This document shows positions 50 through 42,614 of a DNA stretch of 42,664 nucleotides, in pieces. Source of the DNA: a virus; UHGV virus genome UHGV-0036008, one strand, 5' to 3'. The translations under genes and the position numbers were made by a program. The notes under the pieces were generated by a model. The model did not search any database, was not told the DNA's origin, and worked only from the letters and a program-made list of their open reading frames with translations. Numbering within the stretch: position 1 is the stretch's first letter; each line of letters begins with the position of its first letter.

Positions 50-1300
50 GTGCTTACCGATACAAAATTAAAAAACCTCAAGCCGCAGGACAAACTGTAC
101 AAGGTCTCCGATCGTGACGGGCTGTATGTAGCTGTGCTTACGTCAGGCACGGTCTCGTTTCGCTATGACTACCGTATCAACGGTCGCCGCGAAACACTGG
201 TAATCGGGCAGTATGGGCGTGACGGTATCAGCCTGGCAGAAGCGCGAGAAGAACTGATTGCTGCAAAGAAGCTGCTTAAAGCAGGCCAGTCACCGGCTGC
301 GGCTAAACGTGACGGTATCAAAAAGATTCGTGGTGCCGAGACGTTTGCGGTACATACCGACAGTTATATGAAACACGTCATCCTGGCTGACAGTACCCGC
401 GCAATGAAACAGGCGGTGATCGACCGTGACATACTTCCGGTTCTTGGCAACAAAATGATGGCTGAAATTACCACATCGATGGTTCGTGATTTGTGTGACC
501 GGATTGTCGAACGCGGTGGTCGGGCAACAGCAGTACAGGCCAGGGAGATCATCAGCAGCGTATACCGTCACGCCAATGACCGTGGTCATGGTTTGTTTAA
601 TCCTGCGGCTGACATTAAACCTTCGTCTATCGCCATATTTAAACCACGAGAGCGAACACTGACACCAGAAGAAATTGGCCTGTTCTTCCGCACGCTGGAT
701 GCCATTGGTGCTATGGGCACTATGAAAATGGCTTTAAAGCTGGTGCTTATCACTATGGTTCGTAAAGGCGAATTCACCAATGCAACGTGGGATGAAATAG
801 ATTTTAAAAAATGGACATGGACAATTCCTTCAGACCGCATGAAGGGAAGCCGGGCGCACGTTATTTACCTGCCTAAACAGGCACAGGATATATTGGTTGG
901 GTTGCAGATGTGCGCTGGTGGAAGTGAATATCTGGTTCCTGGTCGTTACAATTTCCGGAAGCCATTATCTAATGCCGCGCTGAACTCTCTGATCGACAGA
1001 ACGGTGAAAATAATAAATGAAGATGGTGAGCATATTCAGGGCTTCACCGTACACGATATGCGCCGTACAGCCAGTACGTTGTTGCATGAGGCTGGTTATC
1101 CTTCAGACTGGATTGAAAAGGCTCTGGCACATGAGCAGAAAGGTGTGCGCGCCGTATATAACAAAGCGGAATACGCCAGACAGCGCGCCTACATGTTGCA
1201 GCAGTGGGCCGATATGATTGATTCCTGGATTAACGGGGAGCATACGGATCTGATTCCGTTCTCCCCGTCGAAGTTTGAGAAGTGGATGGCGGGGGAATAA
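50..1300 (+). CDS. int: Tyrosine integrase, P4/CP4-57-like family
   Basis: 416-aa ORF with GTG start; N-terminal MLTDTKLKNLKP..GLYVAV and C-terminal HDMRRTASTLLHE..GVRAVYN motifs typical of P4-type integrases; paralog of ORF 41412..42614. Confidence 0.85.
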   Translation: MLTDTKLKNLKPQDKLYKVSDRDGLYVAVLTSGTVSFRYDYRINGRRETLVIGQYGRDGISLAEAREELIAAKKLLKAGQSPAAAKRDGIKKIRGAETFAVHTDSYMKHVILADSTRAMKQAVIDRDILPVLGNKMMAEITTSMVRDLCDRIVERGGRATAVQAREIISSVYRHANDRGHGLFNPAADIKPSSIAIFKPRERTLTPEEIGLFFRTLDAIGAMGTMKMALKLVLITMVRKGEFTNATWDEIDFKKWTWTIPSDRMKGSRAHVIYLPKQAQDILVGLQMCAGGSEYLVPGRYNFRKPLSNAALNSLIDRTVKIINEDGEHIQGFTVHDMRRTASTLLHEAGYPSDWIEKALAHEQKGVRAVYNKAEYARQRAYMLQQWADMIDSWINGEHTDLIPFSPSKFEKWMAGE

Positions 1301-1308
1301 TTTTGCCC

Positions 1309-1571
1309 GGCACATCCCTGTGCCGCTGTTCTGTCAGAAGAACCCTGCCTTGTCGTTGATGTACTCCGCGTGGGTCTGGATATCACGCAGACATTTGCTC
1401 ACACCGACGATGTAGCAGAACATGGTGGTCAGCTCCGCCGCCGCACCCGATACGTCGTGCCCGTCTTCCTGTAACTGGTTCAGCAGATTCATCAGCAGTG
1501 AGTTCTCCGTCAGGCCGAGAACACCAGACGGCGAATGAATCAGGCTGCGGTAGCCGGGCTTCAGCGGGGCA
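1309..1571. repeat. Copy A of a roughly 260-bp direct repeat (about 95% identical to 33423..33690)
   Basis: Hand alignment: shared hairpin GGCACATCCCTGTGCC followed by the 3' end of an antirepressor-like gene. Confidence 0.8.
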
Positions 1572-2053
1572 CTGTATTCTTTTTTGTCTTCCAGCTTGAT
1601 CGCCTCCATAATGGCGGGCATGAATTTTTCAATTACCTGAGAGGCCTTAGATAAATCAGTTCCACCTGAGAGACGAACATCTCCACTGAGATTTGCGGGT
1701 TTTCTGTCGAAGTAGCAGTCTTCCAGTTTTTCGAACACTTCCCACGCCTGATCGGTTTCCAGCATTTTGGCATGGCGGGCTGCTCCGCGTTCTGTCCAGA
1801 GGATGAGGGAGCGAGTTTTGGGGGATACTGGATTTTGTGAGTTACTTAAAGTAACCCGTAAATTTTTCAGCTCATCGCCAACAACTTTGAAAAAGTGTTT
1901 TCCACAAACAAAGCGATCGGCATTGCGCGAATGGTTCACTTTGATGTTATTAGTGTCAGTGCTGTAAAGTCGCGCCAGTAGTTCGGTAGTGATGACGGGG
2001 ATGTGGTTATAGGTAATTGGGGAAAGAGATTCAACAGAAATTTGAGTAGCCAT
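1334..2053 (-). CDS. Antirepressor-like protein (ORF6N/Rha-type N-terminal domain fused to a shared C-terminal domain)
   Basis: N-terminus VITTELLARLY..NHSRNADRFVCGKHFF..LWTERGA pattern of phage ORF6N/Rha regulators; C-terminal 85 aa nearly identical to C-terminus of ORF 33447..34157. Confidence 0.55.
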   Translation of the reverse strand: MATQISVESLSPITYNHIPVITTELLARLYSTDTNNIKVNHSRNADRFVCGKHFFKVVGDELKNLRVTLSNSQNPVSPKTRSLILWTERGAARHAKMLETDQAWEVFEKLEDCYFDRKPANLSGDVRLSGGTDLSKASQVIEKFMPAIMEAIKLEDKKEYSAPLKPGYRSLIHSPSGVLGLTENSLLMNLLNQLQEDGHDVSGAAAELTTMFCYIVGVSKCLRDIQTHAEYINDKAGFF

Positions 2054-2202
2054 GGTTTTATGTCCTTTCGATTCGTTCAGATTACCCTGTGTTCAGCAGG
2101 GCGGTCAGGTACTTGAACACCGTCGAAAGTTCGGCCCGCATCCTTAGCCTTGCGGCTGTTTTTCGGTATACGCGCTACCCGACCATATCTGAAAAATGGA
2201 CA

Positions 2203-2232
2203 TAAAAAAGCCGCATGACTGACGGGTGCGGT
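2203..2232 (-). terminator. Rho-independent terminator (minus strand)
   Basis: Hairpin CCGCA(N11)TGCGG followed by a U-run on the minus strand, just downstream of ORF 2302..2547. Confidence 0.45.
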
Positions 2233-2301
2233 TTCCGCTTTCGAAGGTGTGTTCAGCACCATGAAGCGGAATATAGACCCGTTAATGCGGCGTTGTCAAT
2301 T

Positions 2302-2547
2302 TCAGGCTTCGTTTTCCAAGTTTATCCCCATTTTTTTGGCAAGACGACGCTGGTTTCTGGATAGGGGCATCGCCACCTTGTCATTGCCTATGTATTTGCT
2401 ATTTCTCATGTTACTAAGGTATGTGTTTACCTCTTCTTCACATGAGCTACCGTCACCATAACGGCCATACCGATGGTGCGCTTCTGCGGCAGTCATCCCG
2501 CCACCAATACTTTGTTTGGTTTTACGATTTCCGCTCTTTTTTGCCAT
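2302..2547 (-). CDS. Hypothetical small basic protein
   Basis: 81-aa ORF followed by an intrinsic terminator; weak RBS. Confidence 0.35.
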   Translation of the reverse strand: MAKKSGNRKTKQSIGGGMTAAEAHHRYGRYGDGSSCEEEVNTYLSNMRNSKYIGNDKVAMPLSRNQRRLAKKMGINLENEA

Positions 2548-2689
2548 CTGCTTACATACTCCATTCTTTCATTTCATGGACTAGCTATAGATATTCCTCT
2601 TGATGCGGCATTGTCAAATCATGCGGCACTGAGTCCGGCAATCTCTGCAATACCAATAGCGAGATAATCGCGATTCGTCAGGCGTGATT

Positions 2690-2965
2690 TTATTGCATAT
2701 GTTTTAGCTCCACTGAAGTTTTGATTTTATATGGGTTGCCTTTTACCTCAATAACACGATGAGGATCATTTTTTAGCTCTTCCGTAATCTTCCGTAATTT
2801 TCTAACAGCTGAACTGCGGTGTTTATAGCGGTAAGTTACAGTTTCTTTTCTCTGCAATACCTCATCATTGCAGTACTTAGTCAAAACCATGACGACTTCA
2901 AACCTGACGCCGTTGTGTGCAACCATGTTCATATGAACACAGTTGAATTTGCTAATCTGCTTCAT
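2690..2965 (-). CDS. Hypothetical protein, translationally coupled to the methyltransferase gene
   Basis: 91 aa from the internal Met of track ORF 2690..3085; ATG overlaps the upstream stop as ATGA. Confidence 0.4.
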   Translation of the reverse strand: MKQISKFNCVHMNMVAHNGVRFEVVMVLTKYCNDEVLQRKETVTYRYKHRSSAVRKLRKITEELKNDPHRVIEVKGNPYKIKTSVELKHMQ

Positions 2966-3612
2966 GCTGCACGTTCCCGCCCCTGGTTGTCTGTTGGTGA
3001 CAGCGGAGCATTGCTGAATGCATTTGTTAATCCGCCAATATCCAACGCGTATCCAGGGTGTAGTTGCACTGCCGGGTCTTCGCACTGATTACCCCAAACA
3101 TCGAAGCCATGAGACGTCTGGCGGGCGAACAGTTCAATGCGAGAAACATCGCCTAATAATTGCACAAGTTTTTCACGAACGATATCTGGCTTTCTTGAAT
3201 GCTCAAGCCGCGGTGCGGTAAATGACTGAACGATCCCTGCATTAATGCGCGTAGGTAGTTTTCCCTTTACCGCAAACAGGCAATCTTCACTATTGGCGCG
3301 AGTCATGTGTCCCATACCCATAACCAGTTTATCTGGTTGTCGACTACCACATTTTATCCACGTGAAGCCCTTCATGGTCATCAGACGGAATCCCCAGGCT
3401 TCAACAACTTTTAGCGCTTCGAGTGGTTGTGTTGGCACCCACCACATGGCCAACAGACAGTTTTCATCGGCCAAATCCCACACAGGAAGGCGGCAGATAT
3501 CCATCACACTCATAACCGGATATTTAAAACTGGCACCGCGATTACCATCTGCGGCTTTGTCCCGGTATACCCAGGGTGGATCTGCATAGATTAGTGTGTA
3601 TTTCTTAGTCAT
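2962..3612 (-). CDS. DNA N6-adenine methyltransferase, MT-A70/Dam-like (orphan)
   Basis: N-terminal TLIYADPPW motif (DPPW catalytic motif); no adjacent restriction endonuclease gene seen. Confidence 0.75.
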   Translation of the reverse strand: MTKKYTLIYADPPWVYRDKAADGNRGASFKYPVMSVMDICRLPVWDLADENCLLAMWWVPTQPLEALKVVEAWGFRLMTMKGFTWIKCGSRQPDKLVMGMGHMTRANSEDCLFAVKGKLPTRINAGIVQSFTAPRLEHSRKPDIVREKLVQLLGDVSRIELFARQTSHGFDVWGNQCEDPAVQLHPGYALDIGGLTNAFSNAPLSPTDNQGRERAA

Positions 3613-3856
3613 AAACCACCCCACAACATCCTATGCCGCTATAGTCGCCACGGCGAAGGCCGTTACCTTTTGTGATACATTGGTCCCTGCGAACCGCGAT
3701 CCTTGCACGTTCAACATCACCAGAAGCAACATCCATACACTGAAGCCAAAGGTGAGCGGCAATGCGGAATTGCCCTTTTTTCTCTCTTTCAATCGCGCGT
3801 TTTTCGATCTCTATCGCCGCAGGAGTAACGGCGACAATCTTTGACGGACTGCGCAT
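3605..3856 (-). CDS. Hypothetical protein
   Basis: Start chosen at internal ATG with AAGG RBS; overlaps methyltransferase start by 8 nt. Confidence 0.3.
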   Translation of the reverse strand: MRSPSKIVAVTPAAIEIEKRAIEREKKGQFRIAAHLWLQCMDVASGDVERARIAVRRDQCITKGNGLRRGDYSGIGCCGVVYD

Positions 3857-4013
3857 TGAAACCTTATTCATGTGATATTTTTCAAGTCGGCTTAACTTTC
3901 TCACTTAATCCAACCCTCTCTGAAAATTAATGCCAGCAGATAAAGCCATGCTGAAACAGAGGCCAGGAATAAGTACCATCCTGACCATTTGCTCCAGTGC
4001 CTTAGCAGCGCAC

Positions 4014-4262
4014 TCATGCAGCGTTGCTCACGGGACGATATACACGTTGCTGAACAGGAGGTTTTTTACCCTGGAACTCTGCCGGGCTTGCTGCCTGACG
4101 TTCATCAAGCCAACGCTCAACTTCGTCACGGTTCCATGCGCAGCGTTTGTCAGTGATATACCAGCGTTTAGGAAATTCCCCTGCGCGCTCCATACGGTCG
4201 ATAGTGCTCCATGACAGTGGCACCACCGCCAGGAGTTCCTTCTTACCTAATGCACCTTTCAT
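4014..4262 (-). CDS. AlpA-family excisionase / transcriptional regulator
   Basis: 82 aa; LLAVVPLSWSTIDRMERAGEFPK...AWNRDEVERWL matches AlpA/Xis winged-helix pattern; strong RBS AGAGAGGT. Confidence 0.7.
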   Translation of the reverse strand: MKGALGKKELLAVVPLSWSTIDRMERAGEFPKRWYITDKRCAWNRDEVERWLDERQAASPAEFQGKKPPVQQRVYRPVSNAA

Positions 4263-4311
4263 AAATACCTCTCTTGGTTGCAGTGCGGCGCGTGTGGCGC
4301 CGCGGTGGTGG

Positions 4312-5193
4312 TTACATAGATGTTTCGTTTAATTCTTCCCGACGAACGCTGTAAACGTCGGTGGCTTTTGCCAGCAGTTCGTCATCATCTGAAAGTTTTT
4401 GTGCAATGTATTTGTAAGCCTTATCCAGTTCGGAGACAGTGCTGTAATTCATCGCTGCGCTGGTAAAGGCCATCAGCATTTCTTCTGGATCACGGCTATC
4501 CGCTTTACGAGTTTGCTCATCAGGCTTTTTCACTGGTTTAGCGTTGATCAGACTGTTCATTCCCGCAGCAGTAGTTGTTTGCGGAGTAATGTCTCGCTCA
4601 ACGCGCGGTGCCGTTTCCTGTAATTCGTCAGGGGTGTAAACACCGAGAAGCACATCAGGAGCGTGCAGGCGAGCCCATCGTTTCGTGCAAAGATAGGCAA
4701 GCTGCTGGCGCGGATCCTGTTCCCACAATGGAGAGTTACGCACTCCGGCTTGCGCCATACTGATGGTAAGCTCACGGGGGTCTGCTTCTCCTTTAAGAAC
4801 TGCTGACACAGTTACCGTCAGATTCGGTGATTTATCTGTTTTGCCGTTAACATTCGACCAGTCACCGCTCCAGCGATAATTCAGGCGTGTCGCCAGCAGG
4901 CTGGAAGAGGATACGACCGCGTTTACCAACTGTGCTTCGTAGCCTAACGTTCCGTTTACCACATGCGTTTTCTGCGCCACGGCGAAAGGGTTCATTCCCC
5001 ACTGTGCCGCCTGCATGGTCACCGCCAGACAATCGGCAGGTTTGCCTTCAAGATGTTTCGGTACAGTCGCTTTGCTTTGTGACATCAACTCCGCGAAACG
5101 CACCAGTTGATTCATGCCCTCCGGGCTGAAGATTGCCGCAGCAGTACCTACAGTTGCGCCTGGTTGTGATGTGATTGCGATATCATTGCTCAT
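4312..5193 (-). CDS. Single-strand annealing recombinase (RecT/Red-beta-like)
   Basis: 293 aa; ...RVERDITPQ segment resembles lambda Bet; gene order and translational coupling with upstream exonuclease gene. Confidence 0.6.
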   Translation of the reverse strand: MSNDIAITSQPGATVGTAAAIFSPEGMNQLVRFAELMSQSKATVPKHLEGKPADCLAVTMQAAQWGMNPFAVAQKTHVVNGTLGYEAQLVNAVVSSSSLLATRLNYRWSGDWSNVNGKTDKSPNLTVTVSAVLKGEADPRELTISMAQAGVRNSPLWEQDPRQQLAYLCTKRWARLHAPDVLLGVYTPDELQETAPRVERDITPQTTTAAGMNSLINAKPVKKPDEQTRKADSRDPEEMLMAFTSAAMNYSTVSELDKAYKYIAQKLSDDDELLAKATDVYSVRREELNETSM

Positions 5194-6011
5194 ACGTACA
5201 TATCCTGTTTACGTGCCCAGTCAGGGCGTTTAATAATTTCCACGCCGCCCCATTCATCATTGATGCGGCATTCGTGATAGGTATTCAGATCCCGGCGGAA
5301 CAGAGCGTGCCCGGCATCGACATCCGGCGCATCCAGCGCGAACATGCGTACCGGATACCGACCACAATCAATGCTTTCGCTCACGGCAAGAAAGAAAAAA
5401 CCATGCGACTGACCAGTAACCCTCATCGCTCCTTCGCGGTACATTGCGTCCTGCACGTGGTAGCGGAATTCCTCGATGTGGCGTGCAAAACGATCCATAT
5501 CTGCAACCTTTTTCACGTCGACGATCACGTTGTGCTCGTTCAGCCATTTGTCTGGACGAATGCGGCACAACTCACCAGTCTCTTCATCGTTCCAGTACAT
5601 TGATGCTTCGCAGTAACCAGGAGCTTCCAACATCCAGCGTGCCGCCGGGTGAGCCATTGCGCTATCACGCATCAGCTCCAGTTTCCGCCACTGCTCGGCA
5701 TCAAGTACCGTAATCCCCATATCCGCCACATCACGAAGAAATGCCTCTTCGTCAGCTTTACCTTGTTTCGTCCGACGATCGAATTTCGGTGAAACAATGA
5801 AGCGTTTGTCGAACTCTCCAGGCTCCAGAAGCAGACAGTGCAATGCGGTTCCCATATCCAGTGCAGACTTTTTCTCTTCGTCTTCTGGTGCTGCCTGAAC
5901 CCATTTAAGAAGCGCCGGATTCTTGGCAACCATGTCCAGTTGCGACTTACTCACGCCGTCACCGGCGTGGTAGTCTTCGTTGCTGATGTCGAAATAAATT
6001 CCCGGTTTCAT
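5190..6011 (-). CDS. RecE-like PD-(D/E)xK exonuclease
   Basis: 273 aa; N-terminal GIYFDISNEDYHAG..SKSQL signature of RecE C-terminal nuclease-like domain; overlaps downstream recombinase gene by 4 nt. Confidence 0.65.
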   Translation of the reverse strand: MKPGIYFDISNEDYHAGDGVSKSQLDMVAKNPALLKWVQAAPEDEEKKSALDMGTALHCLLLEPGEFDKRFIVSPKFDRRTKQGKADEEAFLRDVADMGITVLDAEQWRKLELMRDSAMAHPAARWMLEAPGYCEASMYWNDEETGELCRIRPDKWLNEHNVIVDVKKVADMDRFARHIEEFRYHVQDAMYREGAMRVTGQSHGFFFLAVSESIDCGRYPVRMFALDAPDVDAGHALFRRDLNTYHECRINDEWGGVEIIKRPDWARKQDMYV

Positions 6012-6307
6012 GCCGCGTCCCTCTGTCCATCAAGCTGATCCGCCAGATCCCAGCGCGCTATAATTGCCATTGCCTCGCGCCGGTAGGCATCCATCAGTTC
6101 TTCGAACTCAGGGCTGTCTTTAGCAGCCTCCAGCACTTCCTGACGAACACCTTTGCCTGTTACAACGTCGAAAGTTGAGGACAGTTGATGAAGTCGGATG
6201 CTCTCAATCAGTTCAACTTGTCGGTCATATAGCTGTTCTGACAGGCGGTAGTCCTTGTCGAATGCCAGCATGATTTTTTGAAGATTTTTCTGCTGATTAA
6301 CGTTCAT
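6008..6307 (-). CDS. Hypothetical protein, possible Gam-like nuclease inhibitor
   Basis: 99 aa from second Met with GGGAGGG RBS; weak resemblance (DSPEFEELMDAYRREAMAIIA) to lambda Gam C-terminus; position upstream of exo/recT. Confidence 0.4.
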   Translation of the reverse strand: MNVNQQKNLQKIMLAFDKDYRLSEQLYDRQVELIESIRLHQLSSTFDVVTGKGVRQEVLEAAKDSPEFEELMDAYRREAMAIIARWDLADQLDGQRDAA

Positions 6308-6309
6308 TA

Positions 6310-6462
6310 TCAGCCCTCCCATATCTCGTTATCGTTGGCCACATCGCGAGCTTCTTTGCTGACGAAAGCCCACTTAATGCCTTCCTGTAAGGTGCGGAAC
6401 TTCCAGCTCATGAATCCGCATGCAGTAACGCAGTACCAACCGTTGATGATTTTCCACTGCAT
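6310..6462 (-). CDS. Hypothetical 50-aa protein, first gene of leftward early operon
   Basis: Not in ORF track (below 60 aa); ATG with GAGG RBS, stop overlaps next gene start; hand-translated MQWKIINGWYCVTACGF... Confidence 0.3.
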   Translation of the reverse strand: MQWKIINGWYCVTACGFMSWKFRTLQEGIKWAFVSKEARDVANDNEIWEG

Positions 6463-6468
6463 AACTTG

Positions 6469-6559
6469 TTACCTCGGTCTGTTACCGTTGAGGTAATAAT
6501 TATGCGTATTTGGTTTGATGTCAATAGATATGAGTTAAAAAAATTACCCATCAGGTAAT
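6469..6559. promoter_or_regulatory. OL-like operator cluster: TTACC half-site plus two ATTACC-N5-GGTAAT palindromes
   Basis: Sites at about 6482..6497 and 6543..6559 between repressor terminator and leftward early operon. Confidence 0.6.
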
Positions 6560-6571
6560 AGTATAGGCAAT

Positions 6572-6594
6572 AAAAAAGCCGCCAGAAGGCGGCT
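6572..6594 (-). terminator. Rho-independent terminator of repressor gene
   Basis: GCCGCCAGAAGGCGGC hairpin followed by U6 on minus strand, 20 nt after repressor stop. Confidence 0.6.
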
Positions 6595-6615
6595 TACTTA
6601 CTGAAAAGTATGATT

Positions 6616-7200
6616 TTATTGTTTGTTTTTTTCGTTCTGGTTGATGACAAATTCAATGTAACTTTCGATCTTTGCTTTCTCGGTTTCGGGTAACAATGCG
6701 TAGCGCGAGCGGTCATAGTTGATGGTCGCAGGGTCGTGCGGGTGAATCAGTAATTCATAGCCGTGACGCCCGAATGCGGATGCAACATTCTCCAGGGTGG
6801 AAATGGAAACGCTGACCTCATTGTTTAACAGGCGACTGATTGTCACCTGGGCGACGCCGGATGCGCGGTGAAGTTTTCCCTGCGTTGAAAGGTCGCGGCT
6901 TTCGCTCATCCAGCGTTCCAGGTTGTGAGCCGCCAGCTGACCAATGTCGCTTGGGCCGACAGGCTGAAAACCTTCCTGAGAAAGCGAGCGATCGATATCA
7001 AGCCAGTTACGGGGTTTATTGGCGGCAGCTTCAATTTTTCGCGCAACCTGGTCGCCGATAACCTTCTTGCCAAGAGCCCAGCGGTTTACCAGATTTGCCT
7101 GAGTTCCAAGTTTTTCTGCCATCCGCGTCTGAACACCATTGAATTCACGGTCGATCAAGTCGTTGAGATTTTGCCTGCGGACGTCCTGGATACTTTTCAT
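6616..7200 (-). CDS. Prophage repressor, tandem XRE-type HTH, no S24 peptidase domain
   Basis: 194 aa; two HTH-like segments (QTRMAEKLGTQANLVNRW and ASGVAQVTISRLLNNEVS); sits between OL- and OR-like operator clusters, divergent from cro-like gene. Confidence 0.6.
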   Translation of the reverse strand: MKSIQDVRRQNLNDLIDREFNGVQTRMAEKLGTQANLVNRWALGKKVIGDQVARKIEAAANKPRNWLDIDRSLSQEGFQPVGPSDIGQLAAHNLERWMSESRDLSTQGKLHRASGVAQVTISRLLNNEVSVSISTLENVASAFGRHGYELLIHPHDPATINYDRSRYALLPETEKAKIESYIEFVINQNEKNKQ

Positions 7201-7254
7201 TTTCTGGAAAATCGCCTCATATATGAATCAGTAGATGATTCAATTTAAAGCAAT

Positions 7255-7319
7255 ATTACCCAACAGGTAAATGCACCTCATAGGTAACTATCCTTGATTT
7301 TTGTTACCTTATGGGTGAA
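7255..7319. promoter_or_regulatory. OR-like operator cluster in repressor/cro divergent region
   Basis: ATTACCcaacaGGTAAA at about 7255..7271 and degenerate TTACCttatgGGTGAA at about 7304..7319. Confidence 0.6.
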
Positions 7320-7354
7320 TATTTATTATCTGAAATAAATATCAGGCAATAGCT

Positions 7355-7585
7355 ATGAGCGATAACGGACATTTCGATTTCAAAAAGCACTGGCTTGCAC
7401 TTACTCCGGATGAGCGTGAAGCCTTCGCACAGGAAGCCGGAACGACGAGTCACTATATCCAGACTCACTTAACAGGTAAGCGCAAAATGCCAGGTAAAGT
7501 ATTGATGAATGGGCTTTTTAAAGCCTGTAAAACAAGACAATGGCTGCGCTCAAAAGCAGAACTGGCATACTTCTTCTACTCATGA
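7355..7585 (+). CDS. Cro-like HTH regulator
   Basis: 76-aa ORF divergent from repressor; LTPDEREAFAQEAGTTSHYIQTHLTGKRKMP resembles Cro/YdaS-type HTH. Confidence 0.5.
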   Translation: MSDNGHFDFKKHWLALTPDEREAFAQEAGTTSHYIQTHLTGKRKMPGKVLMNGLFKACKTRQWLRSKAELAYFFYS

Positions 7586-7606
7586 TATCCAGCTACAACC
7601 CTCTGT

Positions 7607-7631
7607 AGACCGCCACCCGGCGGTCTTTTCA
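7607..7631 (+). terminator. Rho-independent terminator after cro-like gene
   Basis: AGACCGCCACCCGGCGGTCT hairpin followed by TTTTC. Confidence 0.55.
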
Positions 7632-7735
7632 TATCTATTCGTACCTCAAAGGTAATAAATAACCAAATCTGGTTGATCTTTTTTTTGTGTCAGCACAAAA
7701 TGACCGTAATCCCAATACTAATAACAGGGCTTACC

Positions 7736-7936: not shown

Positions 7937-7951
7937 TAGCGGAGATTAATC

Positions 7952-9549: not shown

Positions 9550-9585
9550 TACCAGCGCGATAGCGCATTTTTTTACGTTTCAATG

Positions 9586-9664: not shown

Positions 9665-9666
9665 TC

Positions 9667-10011: not shown

Positions 10012-10072
10012 ATCGACGATCTTTTTAGTTATCAATGTAATCAATAAGTTATGTGGATAAGCGAGGATAAAG

Positions 10073-11301: not shown

Positions 11302-11302
11302 T

Positions 11303-34554: not shown

Positions 34555-35283
34555 ATGGAAGTTTTCTGGATAGTTGTTGGTGTGGTTGCGGTGATTATTT
34601 ACGTTATCAACCAGAACAAGACTAAGATCTCTGATCGTACGGTCGTTAATCAGAACAAAACGATAAAGACCGAAGATGGGGAGGTAACGATTAGTCGTAC
34701 ACAGGTGATAGAACACACATCTACTCAGTTTCAAAAAACTGGAGGTAACGCGCCTGATATTTCCGTACCTCCTGCTTATGATAGTGCGGTAATCCAGACA
34801 TATTATAAACAGCAGGAGTTAGCAAAAGAGAGGCAACTGATTCAGCCAAAGCCGTTTACAGCTGAGCTTCCACCTGGAGTGTCAACGCGTCCGGCATATC
34901 ATGGAAGATTCCCTGGTGATGACATATCGTCTCAGTCATCTAAAAAAGCACCTCAGGCAGTATCAGAGCCAGCAAGAATACCTTCTGTATCGCCGCCAAA
35001 AGAAGAATCAGCTAACAGAGTTTCAAGTGGCCGCAAGCAGTGTTTGCGATGCAGAATAAACCTTCCATATGACAAATTCCGGAAATCGTCAAAAAATCCA
35101 GATGGATTGACTAAGTGGTGTGCAAGGTGCCTCGATGGCCCAAAGAATACACGCCATATGAAGTGGTGCCCAATTTGTAATGTCCGCAGAAAACGGACCA
35201 GCTTTTACCCTAATAATCAAAATGCGGACGGCTTAATGGCATGGTGCAAAACGTGCTGGGACGAGCACAAAGCGAAACGATAG
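34555..35283 (+). CDS. Membrane-anchored protein with duplicated C-terminal zinc-ribbon motif
   Basis: N-terminal TM helix (VFWIVVGVVAVIIYVI); two repeats of C-x2-C...N-x-DGL-x2-WC-x2-C. Confidence 0.5.
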   Translation: MEVFWIVVGVVAVIIYVINQNKTKISDRTVVNQNKTIKTEDGEVTISRTQVIEHTSTQFQKTGGNAPDISVPPAYDSAVIQTYYKQQELAKERQLIQPKPFTAELPPGVSTRPAYHGRFPGDDISSQSSKKAPQAVSEPARIPSVSPPKEESANRVSSGRKQCLRCRINLPYDKFRKSSKNPDGLTKWCARCLDGPKNTRHMKWCPICNVRRKRTSFYPNNQNADGLMAWCKTCWDEHKAKR

Positions 35284-35307
35284 GCCGCTCTTGCGGCCTT
35301 TAAATTT
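35283..35307 (+). terminator. Intrinsic terminator
   Basis: GGCCGCTCTTGCGGCC hairpin followed by TTTAAATTT. Confidence 0.5.
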
Positions 35308-35565
35308 ACCGGGTTTGTTTTCGTAATTGTTCGGCACAATAGTCGAGATGTGTTTGCAGATCCTGCATAGACATCTGTGAGCTGGTGACGTAGTTAATCA
35401 GTGCAGTCAGTTCGGCAAGTGGGCCATCGACATTAAATCCATCCTTATCGAGATCCCGGAGTAATTTCATCAAGTGCGATCCCTCCACCAGTGACCTGAC
35501 GCCTCCCGGCGTGTGAATCCTTTCGGTAAATCCGTCTTCCAGTGGATAGTGATACTGCTGCATCT
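35306..35565 (-). CDS. Stand-alone copy of the antirepressor C-terminal domain (86 aa)
   Basis: From internal Met with GGAGAAG RBS; YHYPLEDGFTERIHTPGGVRSLVEGSHLMKLLRDLDKDGFNVDGPLAELT...DLQTH aligns with C-termini of ORFs 1334..2053 and 33447..34157. Confidence 0.45.
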
Positions 35566-35638
35566 TATCTTCTCCATGCAATAACTGTATGTTTATACAG
35601 TAACAAATAATTTGTTTGCTATCCAGCACGTTTTGCAA

Positions 35639-35655
35639 ATTACCCGAAAGGTAAT
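35639..35655. promoter_or_regulatory. ATTACC-N5-GGTAAT site between stand-alone domain gene and tailspike
   Basis: ATTACCcgaaaGGTAAT. Confidence 0.5.
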
Positions 35656-35758
35656 ATCTATTGGTATTTATAGTCTTTTTATCCATATATGGTTTTTCAG
35701 GTAATAGAATAACCAGATATGCGGCGCAACGGGTGCTGCGACTATCTGGAGATTTAAC

Positions 35759-38700
35759 ATGACGGTCTCAACCGAAGTTGACCACAACGAATACACCGGT
35801 AACGGCGTTACGACATCGTTTCCGTATACTTTTCGAATTTTCAGAAAATCAGACCTGGTTGTTCAGGTGTCTGACCTGAACGGGAACGTAACAGAATTGG
35901 TCCTGGATACCGGTTATACGGTAACTGGGGCGGGCACTTATAGTGGCGGTTCTGTGGTTCTTCCGTCTCCGCTTGCTACTGGATGGCGAATTACGATAGA
36001 TCGTGTGCTTGATGTAGTGCAGGACACAGACCTTCGCAATCAGGGAAAATTTTTCCCCGAAGTGCATGAAGATGCCTTTGACTACCTGACGATGCTGATC
36101 CAGCAATGTTTTGGGTGGTTCAGACGTGCATTGATGAAGCCCTCTCTGCTTGCAAAATATTACGATGCAAAGCAAAACAAAATTTCTAACCTTGCAGATC
36201 CATCATTTGAGCAGGACGCTGTAAATAATCGCTCAATGCGTAATTATGTCGATGCTGCAATCGCCGGAGTTGTTGGTGGTTTTGGTTGGTTTATTCAGTA
36301 TGGTTCTGGGGCTGTGTACCGAACGTTCCAGGATAAAATGCGTGATGCTATTAGCCCCAAAGATTTTGGAGCTGTTGGTGATGGTATAAATGACGATTCC
36401 ACTGCAATAAGCGCGTGCCTTGAAGCCTCATCTCCAGGTTATAAAATTGACGGATTAGGGCTTACTTTTAAAGTATCAACTCTTCCGGATGTCAGTCGAT
36501 TTAAAAATGCTCGTTTTTTATTTGAGAGAATACCGGGCCAGCCTCTTTTTTATGCTTCTGAAGATTTTATCCAGGGAGAGTTATTTAAAATTACAGATAC
36601 ACCGTGGTACAACGCCTGGACGCAGGATAAAACGTTTGTATATGACAATGTCATCTATGCGCCTTTTATGGCTGGAGACCGCCATGGTGTGAATAACCTC
36701 CATGTTGCATGGGTTCGCTCAGGAGATGACGGGAAGACCTGGACAACGCCGGAATGGCTTACAGATTTACATGAAAACTATCCCACAGTTAACTATCACT
36801 GCATGAGTATGGGGGTTGTCAGAAATCGCCTTTTTGCTGTAATTGAGACGCGGACCGTGAGAGGAAATAAACTGCAGGTTGCAGAGTTGTGGGATCGCCC
36901 AATGAGTCGCAGCCTTCGCGTTTATGGTGGTATAACGAAAGCAGCAAATCAGCAAGTCGCTTATATTCGCATTACTGATCACGGATTATTTGCTGGTGAT
37001 TTTGTCAACTTCTCAAACTCTGGTGTTACAGGTGTTACCGGGAATATGACGGTGACTACTGTTATTGATAAAAATACCTTTACAGTTACGACGCAAAATA
37101 CCCAGGATGTGGATCAGAATAACGAGGGTAGATACTGGAGTTTTGGCACATCATTTCACTCGTCACCATGGAGAAAAACCAGTCTTGGAACTATTCCTTC
37201 TTTTGTTGACGGAAGCACTCCTGTTACTGAGATTCACAGTTTTGCGACGATTAGCGATAACAGTTTTGCTGTTGGCTACCATAATGGTGATATTGGTCCA
37301 CGCGAGCTTGGGATACTCTATTTCTCTGATGCTTTCGGTTCTCCTGGTAGCTTTGTTCGCAGACGCATACCTGTAGAATATGAGGCGAATGCATCTGAGC
37401 CATGTGTAAAATATTATGATGGCATTCTGTATCTGACGACCAGGGGGACATTAAGTACTCAACCCGGTAGTTCATTGCACAGAAGCTCTGATTTAGGTAC
37501 ATCATGGAATTCTCTTCGCTTCCCAAATAATGTTCATCACTCAAACCTTCCTTTTGCCAAAGTTGGCGATGAGCTGATTATTTTTGGCAGTGAGCGCGCA
37601 TTTGGTGAGTGGGAAGGAGGAGAACCTGATAACCGTTATGCAGGAAATTATCCAAGAACATTTATGACCAGAGTTAACGTCAATGAGTGGAGTCTGGATA
37701 ATGTAGAGTGGGTTAATGTTACTGATCAGATTTATCAGGGCGGAATAGTTAACTCTGCGGTTGGTGTTGGTTCAGTTTGTATCAAAGACAACTGGCTGTA
37801 CTACATTTTCGGTGGGGAAGACTTTCTAAACCCATGGAGCATAGGGGATAACAACAGAAAATATCCTTATGTTCACGATGGTCACCCGGCTGATTTGTAT
37901 TGTTTCAGGGTGAAAATTAAACAGGAAGAATTTGTTTCAAGGGATTTTGTCTACGGAGCCACTCCTAACAGAACGCTTCCTACTTTTATGTCGACGTCAG
38001 GCGTGAGGACGGTTCCTGTACCCGTTGATTTCACAGATGATGTTGCCGTCCAGTCACTGACTGTCCATGCAGGTACATCAGGACAAGTTCGCGCGGAAGT
38101 CAAACTTGAGGGTAATTACGCCATTATTGCGAAGAAAGTACCGTCTGATGATGTTACCGCTCAGAGATTAATCGTTAGCGGCGGTGAAACAACGTCTTCA
38201 GCAGATGGTGCAATGATAACGTTGCATGGTTCCGGAAGCAGTACTCCACGTCGCGCGGTATATAACGCACTCGAACATCTTTTTGAGAACGGAGATGTTA
38301 AACCTTATCTTGATAATGTAAATGCTCTTGGTGGTCCGGGAAACAGGTTCTCGACAGTTTATCTTGGCTCCAATCCTGTGGTTACCAGTGACGGAACATT
38401 AAAGACAGAGCCGGTCTCTCCTGACGAAGCATTGCTGGATGCCTGGGGTGACGTCAGGTATATCGCTTATAAATGGCTGAACGCTGTCGCTATAAAGGGG
38501 GAAGAAGGGGCGAGGATACATCATGGTGTAATCGCGCAGCAACTTCGTGATGTTCTTATTTCTCACGGACTCATGGAAGAAGAAAGCACAACATGCCGCT
38601 ATGCCTTTCTTTGCTATGACGATTATCCCGCAGTATATGATGACGTCATTACTGGCCAAAGGGAAATGCCGCTGACTGATAATGACGGGAGCATCATTGT

Positions 38701-38878
38701 TGATGAGGATGATAATCCAGTGATGGTAATAGAAGACATCATTGAGCGCGTTGAAATAACGCCAGCAGGATCTAGATGGGGGGTCAGACCTGATCTCTTA
38801 TTCTATATCGAGGCAGCATGGCAGCGCAGAGAAATGGATAAGATAAAAGAGCGGGTTCAGTCTCTGGAAGAACGTTAA
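35759..38878 (+). CDS. Tailspike / tail fibre with depolymerase-type domain and C-terminal S74 intramolecular chaperone
   Basis: 1039 aa; T7-tail-fibre-like N-terminus (NEYTGNGVTTSFPYTFRIF); DFGAVGDGINDDSTAI beta-helix motif; Asp-boxes SGDDGKTW and SSDLGTSW; C-terminal SDGTLKTE...HHGVIAQQL autoprocessing signature. Confidence 0.8.
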   Translation: MTVSTEVDHNEYTGNGVTTSFPYTFRIFRKSDLVVQVSDLNGNVTELVLDTGYTVTGAGTYSGGSVVLPSPLATGWRITIDRVLDVVQDTDLRNQGKFFPEVHEDAFDYLTMLIQQCFGWFRRALMKPSLLAKYYDAKQNKISNLADPSFEQDAVNNRSMRNYVDAAIAGVVGGFGWFIQYGSGAVYRTFQDKMRDAISPKDFGAVGDGINDDSTAISACLEASSPGYKIDGLGLTFKVSTLPDVSRFKNARFLFERIPGQPLFYASEDFIQGELFKITDTPWYNAWTQDKTFVYDNVIYAPFMAGDRHGVNNLHVAWVRSGDDGKTWTTPEWLTDLHENYPTVNYHCMSMGVVRNRLFAVIETRTVRGNKLQVAELWDRPMSRSLRVYGGITKAANQQVAYIRITDHGLFAGDFVNFSNSGVTGVTGNMTVTTVIDKNTFTVTTQNTQDVDQNNEGRYWSFGTSFHSSPWRKTSLGTIPSFVDGSTPVTEIHSFATISDNSFAVGYHNGDIGPRELGILYFSDAFGSPGSFVRRRIPVEYEANASEPCVKYYDGILYLTTRGTLSTQPGSSLHRSSDLGTSWNSLRFPNNVHHSNLPFAKVGDELIIFGSERAFGEWEGGEPDNRYAGNYPRTFMTRVNVNEWSLDNVEWVNVTDQIYQGGIVNSAVGVGSVCIKDNWLYYIFGGEDFLNPWSIGDNNRKYPYVHDGHPADLYCFRVKIKQEEFVSRDFVYGATPNRTLPTFMSTSGVRTVPVPVDFTDDVAVQSLTVHAGTSGQVRAEVKLEGNYAIIAKKVPSDDVTAQRLIVSGGETTSSADGAMITLHGSGSSTPRRAVYNALEHLFENGDVKPYLDNVNALGGPGNRFSTVYLGSNPVVTSDGTLKTEPVSPDEALLDAWGDVRYIAYKWLNAVAIKGEEGARIHHGVIAQQLRDVLISHGLMEEESTTCRYAFLCYDDYPAVYDDVITGQREMPLTDNDGSIIVDEDDNPVMVIEDIIERVEITPAGSRWGVRPDLLFYIEAAWQRREMDKIKERVQSLEER

Positions 38879-38904
38879 AAAAAAGCCCGCAAAATATTGC
38901 GGGC
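38877..38904 (-). terminator. Intrinsic terminator oriented for minus-strand transcripts
   Basis: GCCCGCAAAATATTGCGGGC hairpin; U8 only on minus-strand side. Confidence 0.45.
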
Positions 38905-39184
38905 ATCAAAAACGGAGTTGGTGAAAAGTTATCTTTGAATTCTATCATGAATCAGTACGTATTTTAAATACATGTTCAGGTTTATTACACCATAGCATTA
39001 TTAAATACAAAATTAAGTCTATGGTTCCTGTACAACTGCCCCCACTCTGCTGGCTCGTTCTGTAAAATCATTAGTACTTTTATTGAGATATATGATATGG
39101 AACAATAATGATTCATATATGGTTTACTATGCGGGTTTAGTCATCAATAATTGACTGGCTTATAGATAGTAAACAGGAGAAAGT

Positions 39185-39589
39185 ATGTCTGCTCAAGTAA
39201 CAAGTGAGCAATTAAATCAGTTGCTTAGTTTTGGTTCTCTTGCTGCAGTTATTGCAGGTGTCCCTCCGGAGGTTGCTTTAGGGGCTTTGGCTGGGGCGGT
39301 AATTTTTGTTACCTCTGCAGTAGAGTACCCCATCCGTCGCCGGGTGCTCCTGTCGATGCTCAGCTTTCTTTGCGGCCTTCTCTTTTACAAACCAGCAGCA
39401 TCAATTCTTATCGGCATAGCCAGCCTGATCCCTACCATCACGCAGGACTCTTTTGAAAAAGGGATTGTTTTCTCTGCAGGCGCATTCGTGTCAGCAATTG
39501 TCGCTGTGCGTATTGGTATATGGCTCTATCACCGTTCCGATAATCCACGCGAGTTAATTCCGGGGAGAAAAGACGATGGTAACGCATGA
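39185..39589 (+). CDS. Holin-like membrane protein
   Basis: 134 aa, several hydrophobic segments, first gene of lysis cassette, AGGAG RBS. Confidence 0.55.
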   Translation: MSAQVTSEQLNQLLSFGSLAAVIAGVPPEVALGALAGAVIFVTSAVEYPIRRRVLLSMLSFLCGLLFYKPAASILIGIASLIPTITQDSFEKGIVFSAGAFVSAIVAVRIGIWLYHRSDNPRELIPGRKDDGNA

Positions 39590-39884
39590 GTTTTTTTTGC
39601 TTATCACTAATGCAGTTATTTGCACTGGCATAGCAATTCGCGTTGTCACATTCCGGCGTAACGGCTCTCAACATCGAAGGTGGGGAGGATGGCTTGCTTA
39701 TTTCCTGATTGTTGCTGCGGCCAGTATTCCTGTTCGAGTCGCCTATGCAATCTGGTTACGTACGCCAATGGCTGTGGATTTATCTGAGGTCATTATCAAC
39801 GCTGTCATGCTGGCTGCGGTTATTAAAACGCGCGGTAACGTCGTTCAAATTTTTAAAGTATCGAGGTCTAAACATGGAGATTAA
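39576..39884 (+). CDS. Second holin / antiholin-like small membrane protein
   Basis: 102 aa, two hydrophobic helices, overlaps neighbours. Confidence 0.45.
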
Positions 39885-40503
39885 ACAATTCCAGCGAGCT
39901 GCTGGTATCAGCGAGGCACTGGCCGCACGCTGGTTCTCGCATATAACTTCTGCGATGAAAGAGTTTGGTATCAGCAAAGCAGAAGATCAGGCAATGTTTA
40001 TTGCTCAAGTCGGGCATGAGTCTGGGGGCTTCACCAGGTTGCAGGAGAATTTCAACTACAGTGTCAGCGGACTGGCTAACTTCGTTCGGGCTGGGCGTCT
40101 CACTCAGGGGCAGGCTAATGCACTGGGGCGCCGTGCTGGTGAACCACCATTGCCACTTGAGCGCCAGCGCGCGATCGCAAATCTGGTATACAGCAAACGC
40201 ATGGGGAACAATGCCCCTGGTGATGGCTGGAATTACCGAGGGCGCGGACTTATCCAGATTACCGGTTTGAATAACTATCGTGATTGCGGAAACGGTCTGA
40301 AGGTTGACCTGCTGGAGAGCCCTGAACTGCTGGCGCAGGACGAATATGCGGCTCGTAGCGCGGCGTGGTTCTTCGCCAGCAAAGGATGCATGAAGTATAC
40401 CGGCGATATTGCACGTGTAACTCTGATTATCAATGGTGGCCGGAACGGCATCGACGACCGGCGAGCGCGGTACATCACTGCCAGTAAGGTGCTGGCGGTA
40501 TGA
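39874..40503 (+). CDS. Endolysin, glycoside hydrolase family 19 (chitinase-like lysozyme)
   Basis: Internal start of track ORF; [11 protein letters not shown] and [17 protein letters not shown]19 signatures. Confidence 0.75.
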
Positions 40504-40982
40504 TCTGGGCATTCGTAAAAGCATACTGGAAACAGTTGATTATCGTGGCAGTGCTTGCTGTTCTGGTCATATCAGGAGTTGTTGCCTGGAATATACACGG
40601 CAGTCGCCAGTACGATGCCGGGTATGCTCAGGCGGAAGAAGACCGCAAAGCCGAAGAAGACAAAGTTCGTCAGTACTACGAACAGGAGAAAGTGACCAAT
40701 GAACGTGAAGCTCAGCAGAGGATCGACCAGGCGCGCAATGATGCTCTTGATGCTGCCGCTAGCGCTGGCCGGTTGCAGCAACAACTCTTTGCCATCCGTG
40801 AGCAGCTCAGGCAGTATAACGCCATTGTCGGCGCTGGGTCGTCAGCCGCAGACACCGGAGTTTTGCTTGCCGACGTGCTCAGCAAATCTCTCGAGAGAAA
40901 CAGACAACTGGCAGAGTATGCTGACCGGGCAGCCGAAGCCGGAAGAGTCTGCGAAAAACAGTACGACACTTTGACCAGATAG
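40500..40982 (+). CDS. Rz: i-spanin (Rz-like)
   Basis: 160 aa; N-terminal TM helix then coiled-coil; ATGA overlap with endolysin stop. Confidence 0.65.
40738..40974 (+). CDS. Rz1: o-spanin lipoprotein (Rz1-like) embedded in +1 frame of Rz
   Basis: Lipobox LALAGCS after short signal peptide; Pro-rich; wholly inside Rz coding region. Confidence 0.55.
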   Translation: MMLLMLPLALAGCSNNSLPSVSSSGSITPLSALGRQPQTPEFCLPTCSANLSRETDNWQSMLTGQPKPEESAKNSTTL

Positions 40983-41153
40983 CATGGCATTTTTCATGGT
41001 ACTGATTTCCGGTGACGGTATATAAAACGGTACGGGAAAAATTGAGATTTGGAAAAATGTTATCACTCAATTGGTTATGGTTATCGTAAATAATTGAGTG
41101 GGAATGATTCCGCGTCTGGCACAGCCAGGCACCTGATGGCATGAAATGCCGCT

Positions 41154-41183
41154 AAGCCCGCGTAATTGCGGGCTTTTTTTTGT
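41154..41183 (+). terminator. Rho-independent terminator ending the late/lysis operon
   Basis: GCCCGCGTAATTGCGGGC hairpin followed by T8. Confidence 0.7.
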
Positions 41184-41281
41184 TTGTGTTTGGCACGATC
41201 TGGCAACGGGAGGAAGCGCCAAGCACCGTTTGAGCATGGCATTAAAGCTGGTATTATGGTTTGGCGATGCCATGATTGATG

Positions 41282-41390
41282 CCGATACCATGCTGCGTTC
41301 TTTTGTGTGTTCATGGTATTAATATTCTATAAGTTACTGTTTCGTAAGAAAAAATACGATAAATTCGAGATTTTTTCAGCATGGTATCGG
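41282..41390. repeat. Perfect 14-bp inverted repeat CCGATACCATGCTG / CAGCATGGTATCGG plus extra CATGGTAT copies upstream of second integrase
   Basis: Read from sequence; candidate integrase arm-type sites or att-region elements. Confidence 0.5.
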
Positions 41391-41411
41391 AGACGAAGAA
41401 GGACAAGGTAC

Positions 41412-42614
41412 ATGCTGACCGATACCAAGCTGCGCAATCTCAAGCCCAGGGACAAACTCTACAAAGTGAATGACCGGGAAGGTCTCTATGTGGCAGTGAC
41501 TCCAGCCGGCTCCATCTCGTTCCGTTACAACTACTCAATCAACGGTCGGCAGGAGACCATCACCTTTGGGCGTTATGGTGTCGGTGGCATCACCCTGGCC
41601 GAAGCCCGCGAGCTGTTGGGTGACGCCAAGAAGATGGTTGCGGCGGGCAAGTCGCCGGCCAAGGAGAAAGCCCGAGACAAGGCGCGGGTGAAAGATGCAG
41701 AGACGTTCGGTGCCTGGGCGGAGAAGTGGCTGCGTGGCTACCAGATGGCCGACTCCACCCGCGATATGCGCCGCTCGGTTTATGAGCGTGAGCTGAAGCC
41801 GAAATTCAGCAATCAGAAGCTGGTGGAGATCACCCACGAAGACTTGCGGGCGCTGGCTGATGCCATTGTTGAGCGAGGCGCACCGGCCACCGCCGTTCAT
41901 GTGCGTGAAATCGTGTTGCAGGTATTTCGCTGGGCCATCGAGCGTGGGCAGAAGGTCGAAAACCCGGCAGAACTGGTGCGCCCAACAAGCATCGCTCGAT
42001 TCGAGCCACGTGACCGAGCGTTGACGCCAGAAGAAATTGGGCTGATGTACCAGTACATGGAGCGAGTGGGCACAAGCCCAACAAACCGTGCGGCGGCCAA
42101 GCTGTTATTGCTGACGATGGTGCGCAAGAGCGAGCTGACCAATGCGACCTGGAGCGAGATCAATTTCAGCGAAGCGTTGTGGACGATTCCAAAGGAGCGG
42201 ATGAAACGCCGTAACCCGCACCTGGTATTTCTGTCCCAGCAGGCTCTGGATATTTTCATTGCCATGAAAACCTTTGCCGGTGGTTCCGACTTCGTTTTGC
42301 CATCACGGTACGACTCGGATGCGCCGATGAGCGCTGCCACACTTAACCAGGTGCTGACGCTGACTTACAAGGCGGCGCAGAAAGATGGGAAGTCACTTAC
42401 CAAGTTCGGACCGCATGATTTGCGGCGCACAGCCAGCACGCTGTTGCATGAGGCCGGCTACAACACCGACTGGATCGAGAAGTGCCTGGCGCACGAGCAG
42501 AAGGGCGTGAGGGCTGTCTACAACAAGGCTGAGTACCGCGAGCAGCGGGCGGCGATGTTGCAGGATTGGGCCGATATGATTGATGAGTGGACTTCGGGAG
42601 GCAGTAAGGGTTGA
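41412..42614 (+). CDS. int: Tyrosine integrase, P4-like family (second copy, diverged paralog)
   Basis: Start at internal Met of track ORF (MLTDTKLRNLKPRDKLYKVNDREGLYVAV); same domain signatures as ORF 50..1300, clearly diverged. Confidence 0.85.
   Translation: MLTDTKLRNLKPRDKLYKVNDREGLYVAVTPAGSISFRYNYSINGRQETITFGRYGVGGITLAEARELLGDAKKMVAAGKSPAKEKARDKARVKDAETFGAWAEKWLRGYQMADSTRDMRRSVYERELKPKFSNQKLVEITHEDLRALADAIVERGAPATAVHVREIVLQVFRWAIERGQKVENPAELVRPTSIARFEPRDRALTPEEIGLMYQYMERVGTSPTNRAAAKLLLLTMVRKSELTNATWSEINFSEALWTIPKERMKRRNPHLVFLSQQALDIFIAMKTFAGGSDFVLPSRYDSDAPMSAATLNQVLTLTYKAAQKDGKSLTKFGPHDLRRTASTLLHEAGYNTDWIEKCLAHEQKGVRAVYNKAEYREQRAAMLQDWADMIDEWTSGGSKG

Follow-up and report, generated by a model that had tools for sequence, protein, structure and literature searches.

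The window analysed here is a stretch of 42,664 nucleotides (nt), the virus genome UHGV-0036008, in which a complete K1-specific prophage is followed by the first gene of GIsul2, a sulfonamide-resistance island with sul2; guaA is the insertion site of both. GIsul2 is an integrative mobilizable genomic island with ISCR2-sul2 (PMC9376610). Each element brings its own integrase gene, and both genes lie on the plus strand: int1 (50..1300) has a GTG start and encodes the 416-amino-acid tyrosine integrase of the phiV10/epsilon15-type prophage, and int2 (41412..42614) encodes the 400-amino-acid integrase of GIsul2. The longest open reading frame (ORF) at int2 begins at 41307; the ATG start at 41412 agrees with the RefSeq annotation WP_000954590.1. 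The two proteins align without gaps over 396 residues at 54% identity and have the same architecture, comprising Arm-DNA-bind_3, Phage_int_M and Phage_integrase. A three-way alignment shows no change at the catalytic positions (Arg, His-x-x-Arg, His and Tyr), and therefore neither int1 nor int2 is a pseudogene, a case which an earlier note on this DNA, made from the letters alone, had named as contradicting its own reading. The same note had described two diverged integrases of one orientation and one domain layout, which the two intact ORFs bear out; its statement that they bracket the prophage holds for their flanking positions, but not for int2 as a part of the phage, as this gene lies in GIsul2.

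The integrase int1 is 98-99.8% identical to integrases of Uetakevirus phage records, and the next phage integrase families share about 32% identity with it. All eight listed loci with a gene for precisely this int1 protein have the end of guaA 192 nt before that gene. The phiV10 genome runs spanin-attP-int, and int1 is therefore the phage's own integrase. The second gene, int2, begins 303 nt past the right attachment (att) core of the phage, and is the first gene of a second element and not a part of the phage. Its protein is found at 100% identity in about 44 species representatives across Proteobacteria, and no int2-type integrase with more than 60% identity is present among 50,697 phage records, in which the best relatives are the Uetakevirus integrases (54-55%). 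Thus, int1 serves the phage and int2 serves GIsul2; this assignment and the positions of attL and attR, which the earlier note had regarded as undecidable from the window, were resolved with sequence from outside it.

Between the two elements lies the att core ATTGAGTGGGAATGATT (41092..41108, plus strand), a hybrid site that is the attR of the prophage and the attL of GIsul2 and that duplicates the 3' end of guaA (I-E-W-E-stop). Of the 17 nt of this core, the first 15 are the end of guaA with its stop codon, and two lie beyond it. The window has no exact GAGTGGGAATGA besides the copy at 41092..41108, and the earlier note was right in finding no flanking direct repeat within these limits; beyond them, however, the left copy lies 158 nt outside. 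To cover the flanks, the source contig QSVV01000001.1 (GCA_003439545.1) was compared in two pieces, 8053 nt at the left end and 7165 nt at the right end of the window, and the window matches both with 0 mismatches. Left of the window, the contig reads xseA-guaB-guaA, and the 17-nt core is found again at the end of guaA, as it is in solitary lysogens. This left core, the attL of the phage, begins 158 nt before position 1, inside guaA, and ends 190 nt before the start of int1; the distance from this core to the middle one is 41,249 nt. Downstream of int2, the contig continues with alpA, repA, repC and fitA. Extending the sequence on both sides, as the earlier note had proposed, thus places the left core in guaA, the middle core at 41092..41108 and GIsul2 genes on the right. 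The core attgagtgggaatgatt is the published attP/attB core of the phages ZX5, phiV10 and epsilon15, located 190 base pairs (bp) upstream of int and corresponding to the guaA 3' end (PMC9782041).

The arms around the middle core come from different elements. On its left, the right (P) arm of the prophage (40983..41091, plus strand) contains CATGGCAT (40983..40990), CATGGTAC (40995..41002) and GTGACGGTAT (41012..41021) in a block that is identical in phiV10 and epsilon15; the block GCATGGYATTTTTCATGGTAY is common to this arm and to the P arm of GIsul2. On its right, the int-proximal (P') arm of GIsul2 (41109..41411, plus strand) is 100% identical to that of GIsul2 at guaA in E. coli 6409. The sequence at 41064..41120 accordingly reads ...cgtaaataATTGAGTGGGAATGATTccgcgtctgg..., i.e. 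phage P arm, core and GIsul2 P' arm. The distal part of the int-proximal (P') arm of the prophage fills positions 1..49 (plus strand), with GGTAT at 3..7 and an inverted TGACGGTAT at 14..22; it aligns colinearly with the spacer that separates attP from int in phiV10, epsilon15 and a Klebsiella prophage, in which the ACGGTAT blocks are invariant. Each element is also found alone at guaA. Solitary lysogens among complete E. coli genomes have the order guaA, core, int1 ... spanin, core, yfgI, with the left junction ...ACCATTGAGTGGGAATGATTaacagc... and the right junction ...aataATTGAGTGGGAATGATTtgactc..., and solitary GIsul2 has the order guaA, core, int2 ... sul2, core, yfgI, with the left junction ACCATTGAGTGGGAATGATTccgcgtctgg (E. 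coli 6409) and the right junction caatAGAGTGGGAATGATTtgaccc.

Two further repeats were observed in the phage arms. A terminator hairpin, AACCCTCTGTTTTTACAGAGGGTTTTT, lies in the int-proximal arm 71..97 nt left of position 1 and nearly equals the native guaA terminator AAACCCTCTGTTACTACAGAGGGTTTTTT; the homology of the phage attP to the guaA locus therefore exceeds the 17-nt core. An 8-bp perfect inverted repeat pairs CACTCAAT (41064..41071) in the phage P arm with ATTGAGTG (41092..41099) in the left half of the core, and is only partly kept in epsilon15.

The right end of the window (41107..42664, 1558 nt) is 100% identical in nucleotides to 23 E. coli records among the matches listed, and 99.9% identical to one more. 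Of the approximately 15.5 kilobases (kb) of GIsul2 in the reference copy, the window covers just the first 1.56 kb; the spacer between int2 and alpA starts at 42615..42664 (plus strand), and the island extends past the end. In E. coli 6409, this 1558-nt sequence begins directly after guaA, and int is followed by alpA, repA, repC, fitA, trbJKL, a ptaRNA1-type toxin, the ars operon, a resolvase, ISCR2, a glmM remnant and sul2, after which yfgI is reached. This gene order is that of GIsul2, and the right element is therefore GIsul2. The island is reportedly also treated by Nigro and Hall in 2011 and by Harmer and co-workers in 2017. Its integrase is the one annotated in fully annotated GIsul2 (WP_000954590.1), and its left end is a guaA-derived att site that contains GAGTGGGA and continues from the core into CCGCGTCTGG..., as in guaA::GIsul2. 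In the source contig, alpA-repA-repC-fitA match the GIsul2 backbone, and the further ~10 kb (trbJKL, a toxin-antitoxin system, ars, resG, ISCR2 and sul2) are known from other genomes. In 66 of the 76 evaluable species loci, the int gene of the GIsul2 family is preceded at a distance of about 316 nt by an ORF whose product ends in P(A/G)T(I/V)EWE-stop, the GuaA C-terminus. In a GIsul2 copy at a secondary site in a pheV island, the crossover falls within GGG. It has been shown that the GIsul2 integrase excises the island and integrates it at GAGTGGGA in the guaA 3' end, and that Int alone suffices for integration (PMC9376610).

Both elements also encode an AlpA-family protein. In the prophage, it is encoded at 4014..4262 on the minus strand (Pfam Phage_AlpA, E = 3e-5) and is a putative excisionase, or recombination directionality factor, whose ortholog bears the label excisionase in the epsilon15 record and AlpA family in that of phiV10. 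It shares 39% identity with the AlpA protein of GIsul2 (E = 2e-17). The ORF at 3605..3853 (minus strand), which was also considered, was rejected as the phage AlpA, as it encodes a PerC-family protein without similarity to the GIsul2 AlpA. Mobilization of GIsul2 becomes easy to detect when AlpA is overexpressed, and AlpA is the likely excisionase in the view of the authors of that work (PMC9376610). As judged from the sequences, the comparison indicates that phage and island hold a homologous int-alpA-attP module.

Upstream of int2, the earlier note had seen a perfect 14-bp inverted repeat, and it is indeed present, as CCGATACCATGCTG at 41282..41295 and CAGCATGGTATCGG at 41377..41390 with 81 nt between the arms. 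By our own arithmetic, about 4e-4 such repeats are expected by chance in ~470 nt. The repeat consists of two opposed copies of CATGGTAT with matching flanks, and relatives keep only the cores of 8-9 bp, ATACCATG(C)/(G)CATGGTAT. The motif CATGGYAY occurs 12 times in the window (7.2 expected over 42.7 kb), and seven of the 12 copies fall within the 405 nt of 40983..41387. Five of them lie in the GIsul2 P' arm, at 41235..41242 (+), 41267..41274 (-), 41285..41292 (-), 41312..41319 (+) and 41380..41387 (+). An alignment of 38 unique int-proximal arms of GIsul2-family islands, which are 58-100% identical to the arm in the window, keeps all five positions; within the five sites, which span 40 columns, conservation is 98.8% and 75% of the columns are invariant, compared to 74% and 19% for the other columns (Mann-Whitney p = 3e-14, a statistic that ignores relatedness). 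Two further tandem copies (GCATGGTATTTTTCATGGTAT) are found in the other arm of GIsul2, about 15 kb away, and the P arm of the phage carries the homologous block GCATGGCATTTTTCATGGTAC at 40981..41002. A terminator scan places a conserved terminator hairpin with a T run (41154..41175) after the core. An RNA element in 40900..42664 was considered and rejected: no Rfam family reaches the threshold over this region, and the sub-threshold matches are driven by the terminator hairpin. A promoter for int2 was likewise rejected; there is one consensus match (41230..41257), which is no more than in shuffled sequence.

Left-end sequences of GIsul2 were also encountered in other settings. E. coli plasmid pSCU-105-1 carries beside sul2 (3314..5402) an attP-like GIsul2 junction, which runs from the right end through the core and the left end to 82 nt into int. 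The ~388 plasmid loci that match only part of 41107..42664 are probably due to the same left-end fragment, which suggests that the plasmid sul2 regions derive from the circular excised form. Contigs of Albibacterium and Parapedobacter (Bacteroidota) encode the GIsul2 int at 100% identity and have the P-arm pair of CATGGTAT directly upstream of the core; these pairs sit about 385-397 nt upstream of int, in an attP-like or tandem junction at the contig end. Contamination could account for the junctions in Bacteroidota, as could a tandem copy or a circular form of the island.

From these observations, we conclude, with a probability of about 0.92, that a phiV10/epsilon15-type K1 prophage and GIsul2 are inserted head to tail in one 17-bp target, the 3' end of guaA. 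This is a tandem array at one att site, as the earlier note had supposed: the left and middle cores are seen, both integrases are intact and each belongs to its own element, and the third core is expected from the reference GIsul2 copy. The order would be guaA, core, the ~41.2-kb prophage, core, GIsul2, third core and yfgI, the last two as in the reference copy, and a complete GIsul2 in the source contig would end in ...CAATAGAGTGGGAATGATT, followed by the yfgI side. Each element has a tyrosine integrase, a putative excisionase of the AlpA family and a pair of att arms of its own, and both integrases would recombine in one core, GAGTGGGA within ATTGAGTGGGAATGATT. The core encodes the conserved C-terminus of GMP synthase, and the guaA 3' end would be regenerated at each insertion, as was shown by others for both systems, whose integration activity is likewise established by their work. 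The element that arrived second presumably entered the hybrid att site left by the first, thereby producing the chimeric middle site at 41092..41108, composed of phage P arm, core and GIsul2 P' arm. Excision of the phage would then proceed between attL and the middle site and excision of GIsul2 between the middle site and attR, each by its own Int and AlpA. All four arms are kept, and therefore each element should remain separately excisable.

Several points weigh against this conclusion. The exact phage-GIsul2 junction is found in 0 of 5426 complete E. coli genomes, so that the arrangement rests on one draft assembly and on analogous junctions. The completeness of GIsul2 in the source contig, with its right end and the third core, is deduced from other genomes. 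Furthermore, both orders of arrival predict an identical junction sequence, and the order is therefore unreadable from the junctions. In favour of the conclusion, the analogous junction, from the phage P arm to the P' arm of a related island, is present in 7-8 complete E. coli genomes; int of this island is ~80% identical in nucleotides, and trb genes are present. A synthetic query for the reverse order, GIsul2 and then phage, gave 0 hits in the 5426 complete genomes. Also in favour of it, near-identical phage right ends (4-13 mismatches in 5610 nt) join the native yfgI side directly in other genomes, and GIsul2 stands alone at guaA in at least 13 genomes. In a contig of Logan ERR1622694 (5484..8016), an identical spanin gene is followed by a BigA-like autotransporter gene, with neither yfgI nor GIsul2 and without the 17-nt core; this layout could be a rearrangement or a different insertion context.

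The earlier note had placed the tandem islands at a transfer RNA (tRNA) or transfer-messenger RNA (tmRNA) gene just left of the window, and P4-type integrases with Arm-DNA-bind_3 do commonly target such genes, as is generally known and also noted in PMC9782041. The left flank, however, holds guaB-guaA with the core within the last guaA codons, guaA is upstream in 8/8 listed loci with exact int1, and the duplicated sequence is the guaA 3' end, not that of a tRNA or tmRNA gene. With ARAGORN, neither kind of gene is predicted in the right flank, in 4.7 kb of sequence preceding the window or in the guaA::GIsul2 reference locus, and the sole tRNA of the window is internal to the phage, so that such a target was rejected and retains a practically negligible probability. 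A single composite element, i.e. a phage whose cargo is GIsul2 or merely a second integrase, so that one of the two integrases is redundant, might be read from the contiguity of both integrase genes with phage DNA in the same orientation and from a hybrid middle site that is attP-like in having arms on both sides. Yet a full att core separates the elements, each of which occurs alone at guaA with two cores; phage genome records close the circle from spanin to int1, without int2; and the composite would measure ~56.7 kb, compared to roughly 39-45 kb for the genomes of related phages listed. This makes a composite very unlikely. Just as improbable is an artefact in which the draft contig was misjoined via the shared 17-bp core: although short reads underlie the source draft and complete E. 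coli genomes lack the exact junction, 17 bp is below usual assembly k-mers by our own reckoning, both novel junctions (guaA-core-phage arm and phage arm-core-GIsul2 arm) lie on one contig, and the same kind of junction with a related island occurs in complete genomes.

For the repeats upstream of int2, the earlier note had suggested that the additional CATGG(T/C)A copies are arm-type or regulatory sites, and the conservation of five positions in 38 diverged arms speaks for the former: the CATGGYAY copies, including the 14-bp repeat, are probably integrase arm-type sites, predicted to be bound by the N-terminal domain of GIsul2 Int. Two points count against this assignment. The int-proximal arm of the phage repeats (G)ACGGTAT instead, which is invariant in phiV10, epsilon15 and the Klebsiella prophage, and the tandem pair in the P arms could be AlpA sites, which is the main alternative. 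The epsilon15 record annotates GTGACGGTAT, a site of the (G)ACGGTAT type, as integrase binding site. A regulatory role, with the 14-bp repeat and CATGGYAY forming an RNA hairpin or leader or a repressor operator for int2, has in its favour that the repeat is perfect over 14 bp and that the promoter-like match overlaps the first site. We consider it possible but rather doubtful, as the arms are 81 nt apart and conserved in relatives over 8-9 bp only, further copies are arranged as direct repeats and are also found 15 kb off, on the second att arm of the island, no Rfam family reaches its threshold, and the promoter count is not above that of shuffled sequence.

Whether the phage and GIsul2 are functionally coupled, and not mere neighbours, can be considered on the basis of their shared module (Int 54%, AlpA 39%, an identical core and the GCATGGYATTTTTCATGGTAY block in the P arms). 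Induction of the phage might trigger excision of GIsul2 through cross-acting AlpA or Int, or headful packaging, if it begins in situ and proceeds towards the island, might carry GIsul2 and sul2 into particles, since GIsul2 immediately follows the prophage in the direction in which its terminase and structural genes are read, a geometry known from lateral transduction. GIsul2 was also considered as a phage-inducible chromosomal island or phage satellite; no genes for hijacking helper packaging (capsid-size redirection, a homologue of the terminase small subunit, cos/pac) are found in its RefSeq annotation. Cross-action is possible, as is phage packaging of GIsul2, but neither has support, and we regard functional coupling as unlikely. 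The literature accessible to the search contained no phage-GIsul2 tandem at guaA and no link of GIsul2 with epsilon15 or phiV10. The closest phage relatives of the GIsul2 integrase are the guaA-targeting Uetakevirus integrases. A single protein-coding target of high conservation is thus one for which a phage and a mobilizable resistance island are rivals, or at which they are stacked. The predicted arm sites of GIsul2 appear to be undescribed, as the word 'arm' is absent from PMC9376610, and could guide work on the control of GIsul2 excision. Tandem insertion of this kind is ordinary, and both elements and both att cores are already published; the phage-GIsul2 pairing and the predicted arm sites are incremental additions only, none of them surprising to a specialist.

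The body of the prophage spans 1334..40982, from an ORF6N antirepressor-type gene through the spanin gene, with functions taken from near-identical annotated loci and Pfam. The first part of the gene run comprises the ORF6N antirepressor-type gene, an MT-A70 methylase, PerC, AlpA, RecT, a nuclease, a repressor and replication genes, and the second part comprises terminase, portal, capsid, tail, internal proteins, the K1 endosialidase tailspike, holins, endolysin (39874..40503) and spanin (40500..40982). The first 25 kb are 97-98% identical over 77-85% of their length to the Uetakevirus phages PAS61, phiv142-3, phiV10, ZX5 and TL-2011b, with 82-85% covered by PAS61, phiV10, ZX5 and others; the gene order agrees with phiV10 and with an annotated solitary prophage, and the attP core ~190 nt upstream of int and the integration at the guaA 3' end are likewise those of Uetakevirus. 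The tailspike gene (35759..38878, plus strand; Pfam) encodes a K1 endosialidase in which all parts are present, i.e. the N-terminal extension, the beta-propeller and beta-barrel, the tailspike domain and the S74 chaperone, and the phage is therefore specific for K1-capsulated hosts.

Further features of the prophage concern its accessory genes. The ORF6N-domain antirepressor-type gene (1334..2053, minus strand) adjoins int1, and related prophages have an AntA-type gene or none there; the exact ORF6N protein is found on only 10 contigs and this is therefore a variable cassette. A tRNA-Arg gene (anticodon TCT; 16043..16119, minus strand), the sole tRNA in the window, separates the terminase from the portal genes; the annotation of a near-identical solitary prophage includes it as well, whereas that of the phiV10 record does not. 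At about 31500..39000, the G+C content is 41-45% compared to ~50% elsewhere in the prophage, and BRO-N and small accessory ORFs lie there on the minus strand (32719..33300, 33447..34172 and 35306..35686). This stretch looks like a mosaic accessory or moron region.

Compared to known systems, the prophage shares synteny, integrase and the attP core ATTGAGTGGGAATGATT 190 nt upstream of int with the Uetakevirus phages phiV10, epsilon15, vB_EcoP_ZX5, PAS61 and phiv142-3. In contrast to phiV10, which has an O157/O-antigen tailspike and an O-acetyltransferase, it encodes a K1 endosialidase, and it differs from phiV10-type phages by its antirepressor cassette (ORF6N) and the tRNA-Arg gene. GIsul2 corresponds to known copies in that int2 and the 305-nt upstream arm are 100% identical; its left junction, however, is formed here by the prophage arm and not by guaA itself. 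The integrase of bacteriophage P4 has the same domain architecture and belongs to the INT_P4-type family, but shares only about 28% identity with int1. The target of P4 is a tRNA-Leu gene, whereas int1 and int2 target a protein-coding 3' end. The closest parallels for the arrangement as a whole are tandem SXT/R391 integrative and conjugative elements (ICEs) at prfC and arrays of ICEs and cis-mobilizable elements (CIMEs) in streptococci, in which related integrases, one core, a hybrid att site and retained arms, as required for joint or separate excision, are likewise found (see the review of integrative mobilizable elements, PMC5704250). Unlike in those arrays, the partners at guaA are a tailed phage and a mobilizable resistance island, whose integrases are 54% identical.

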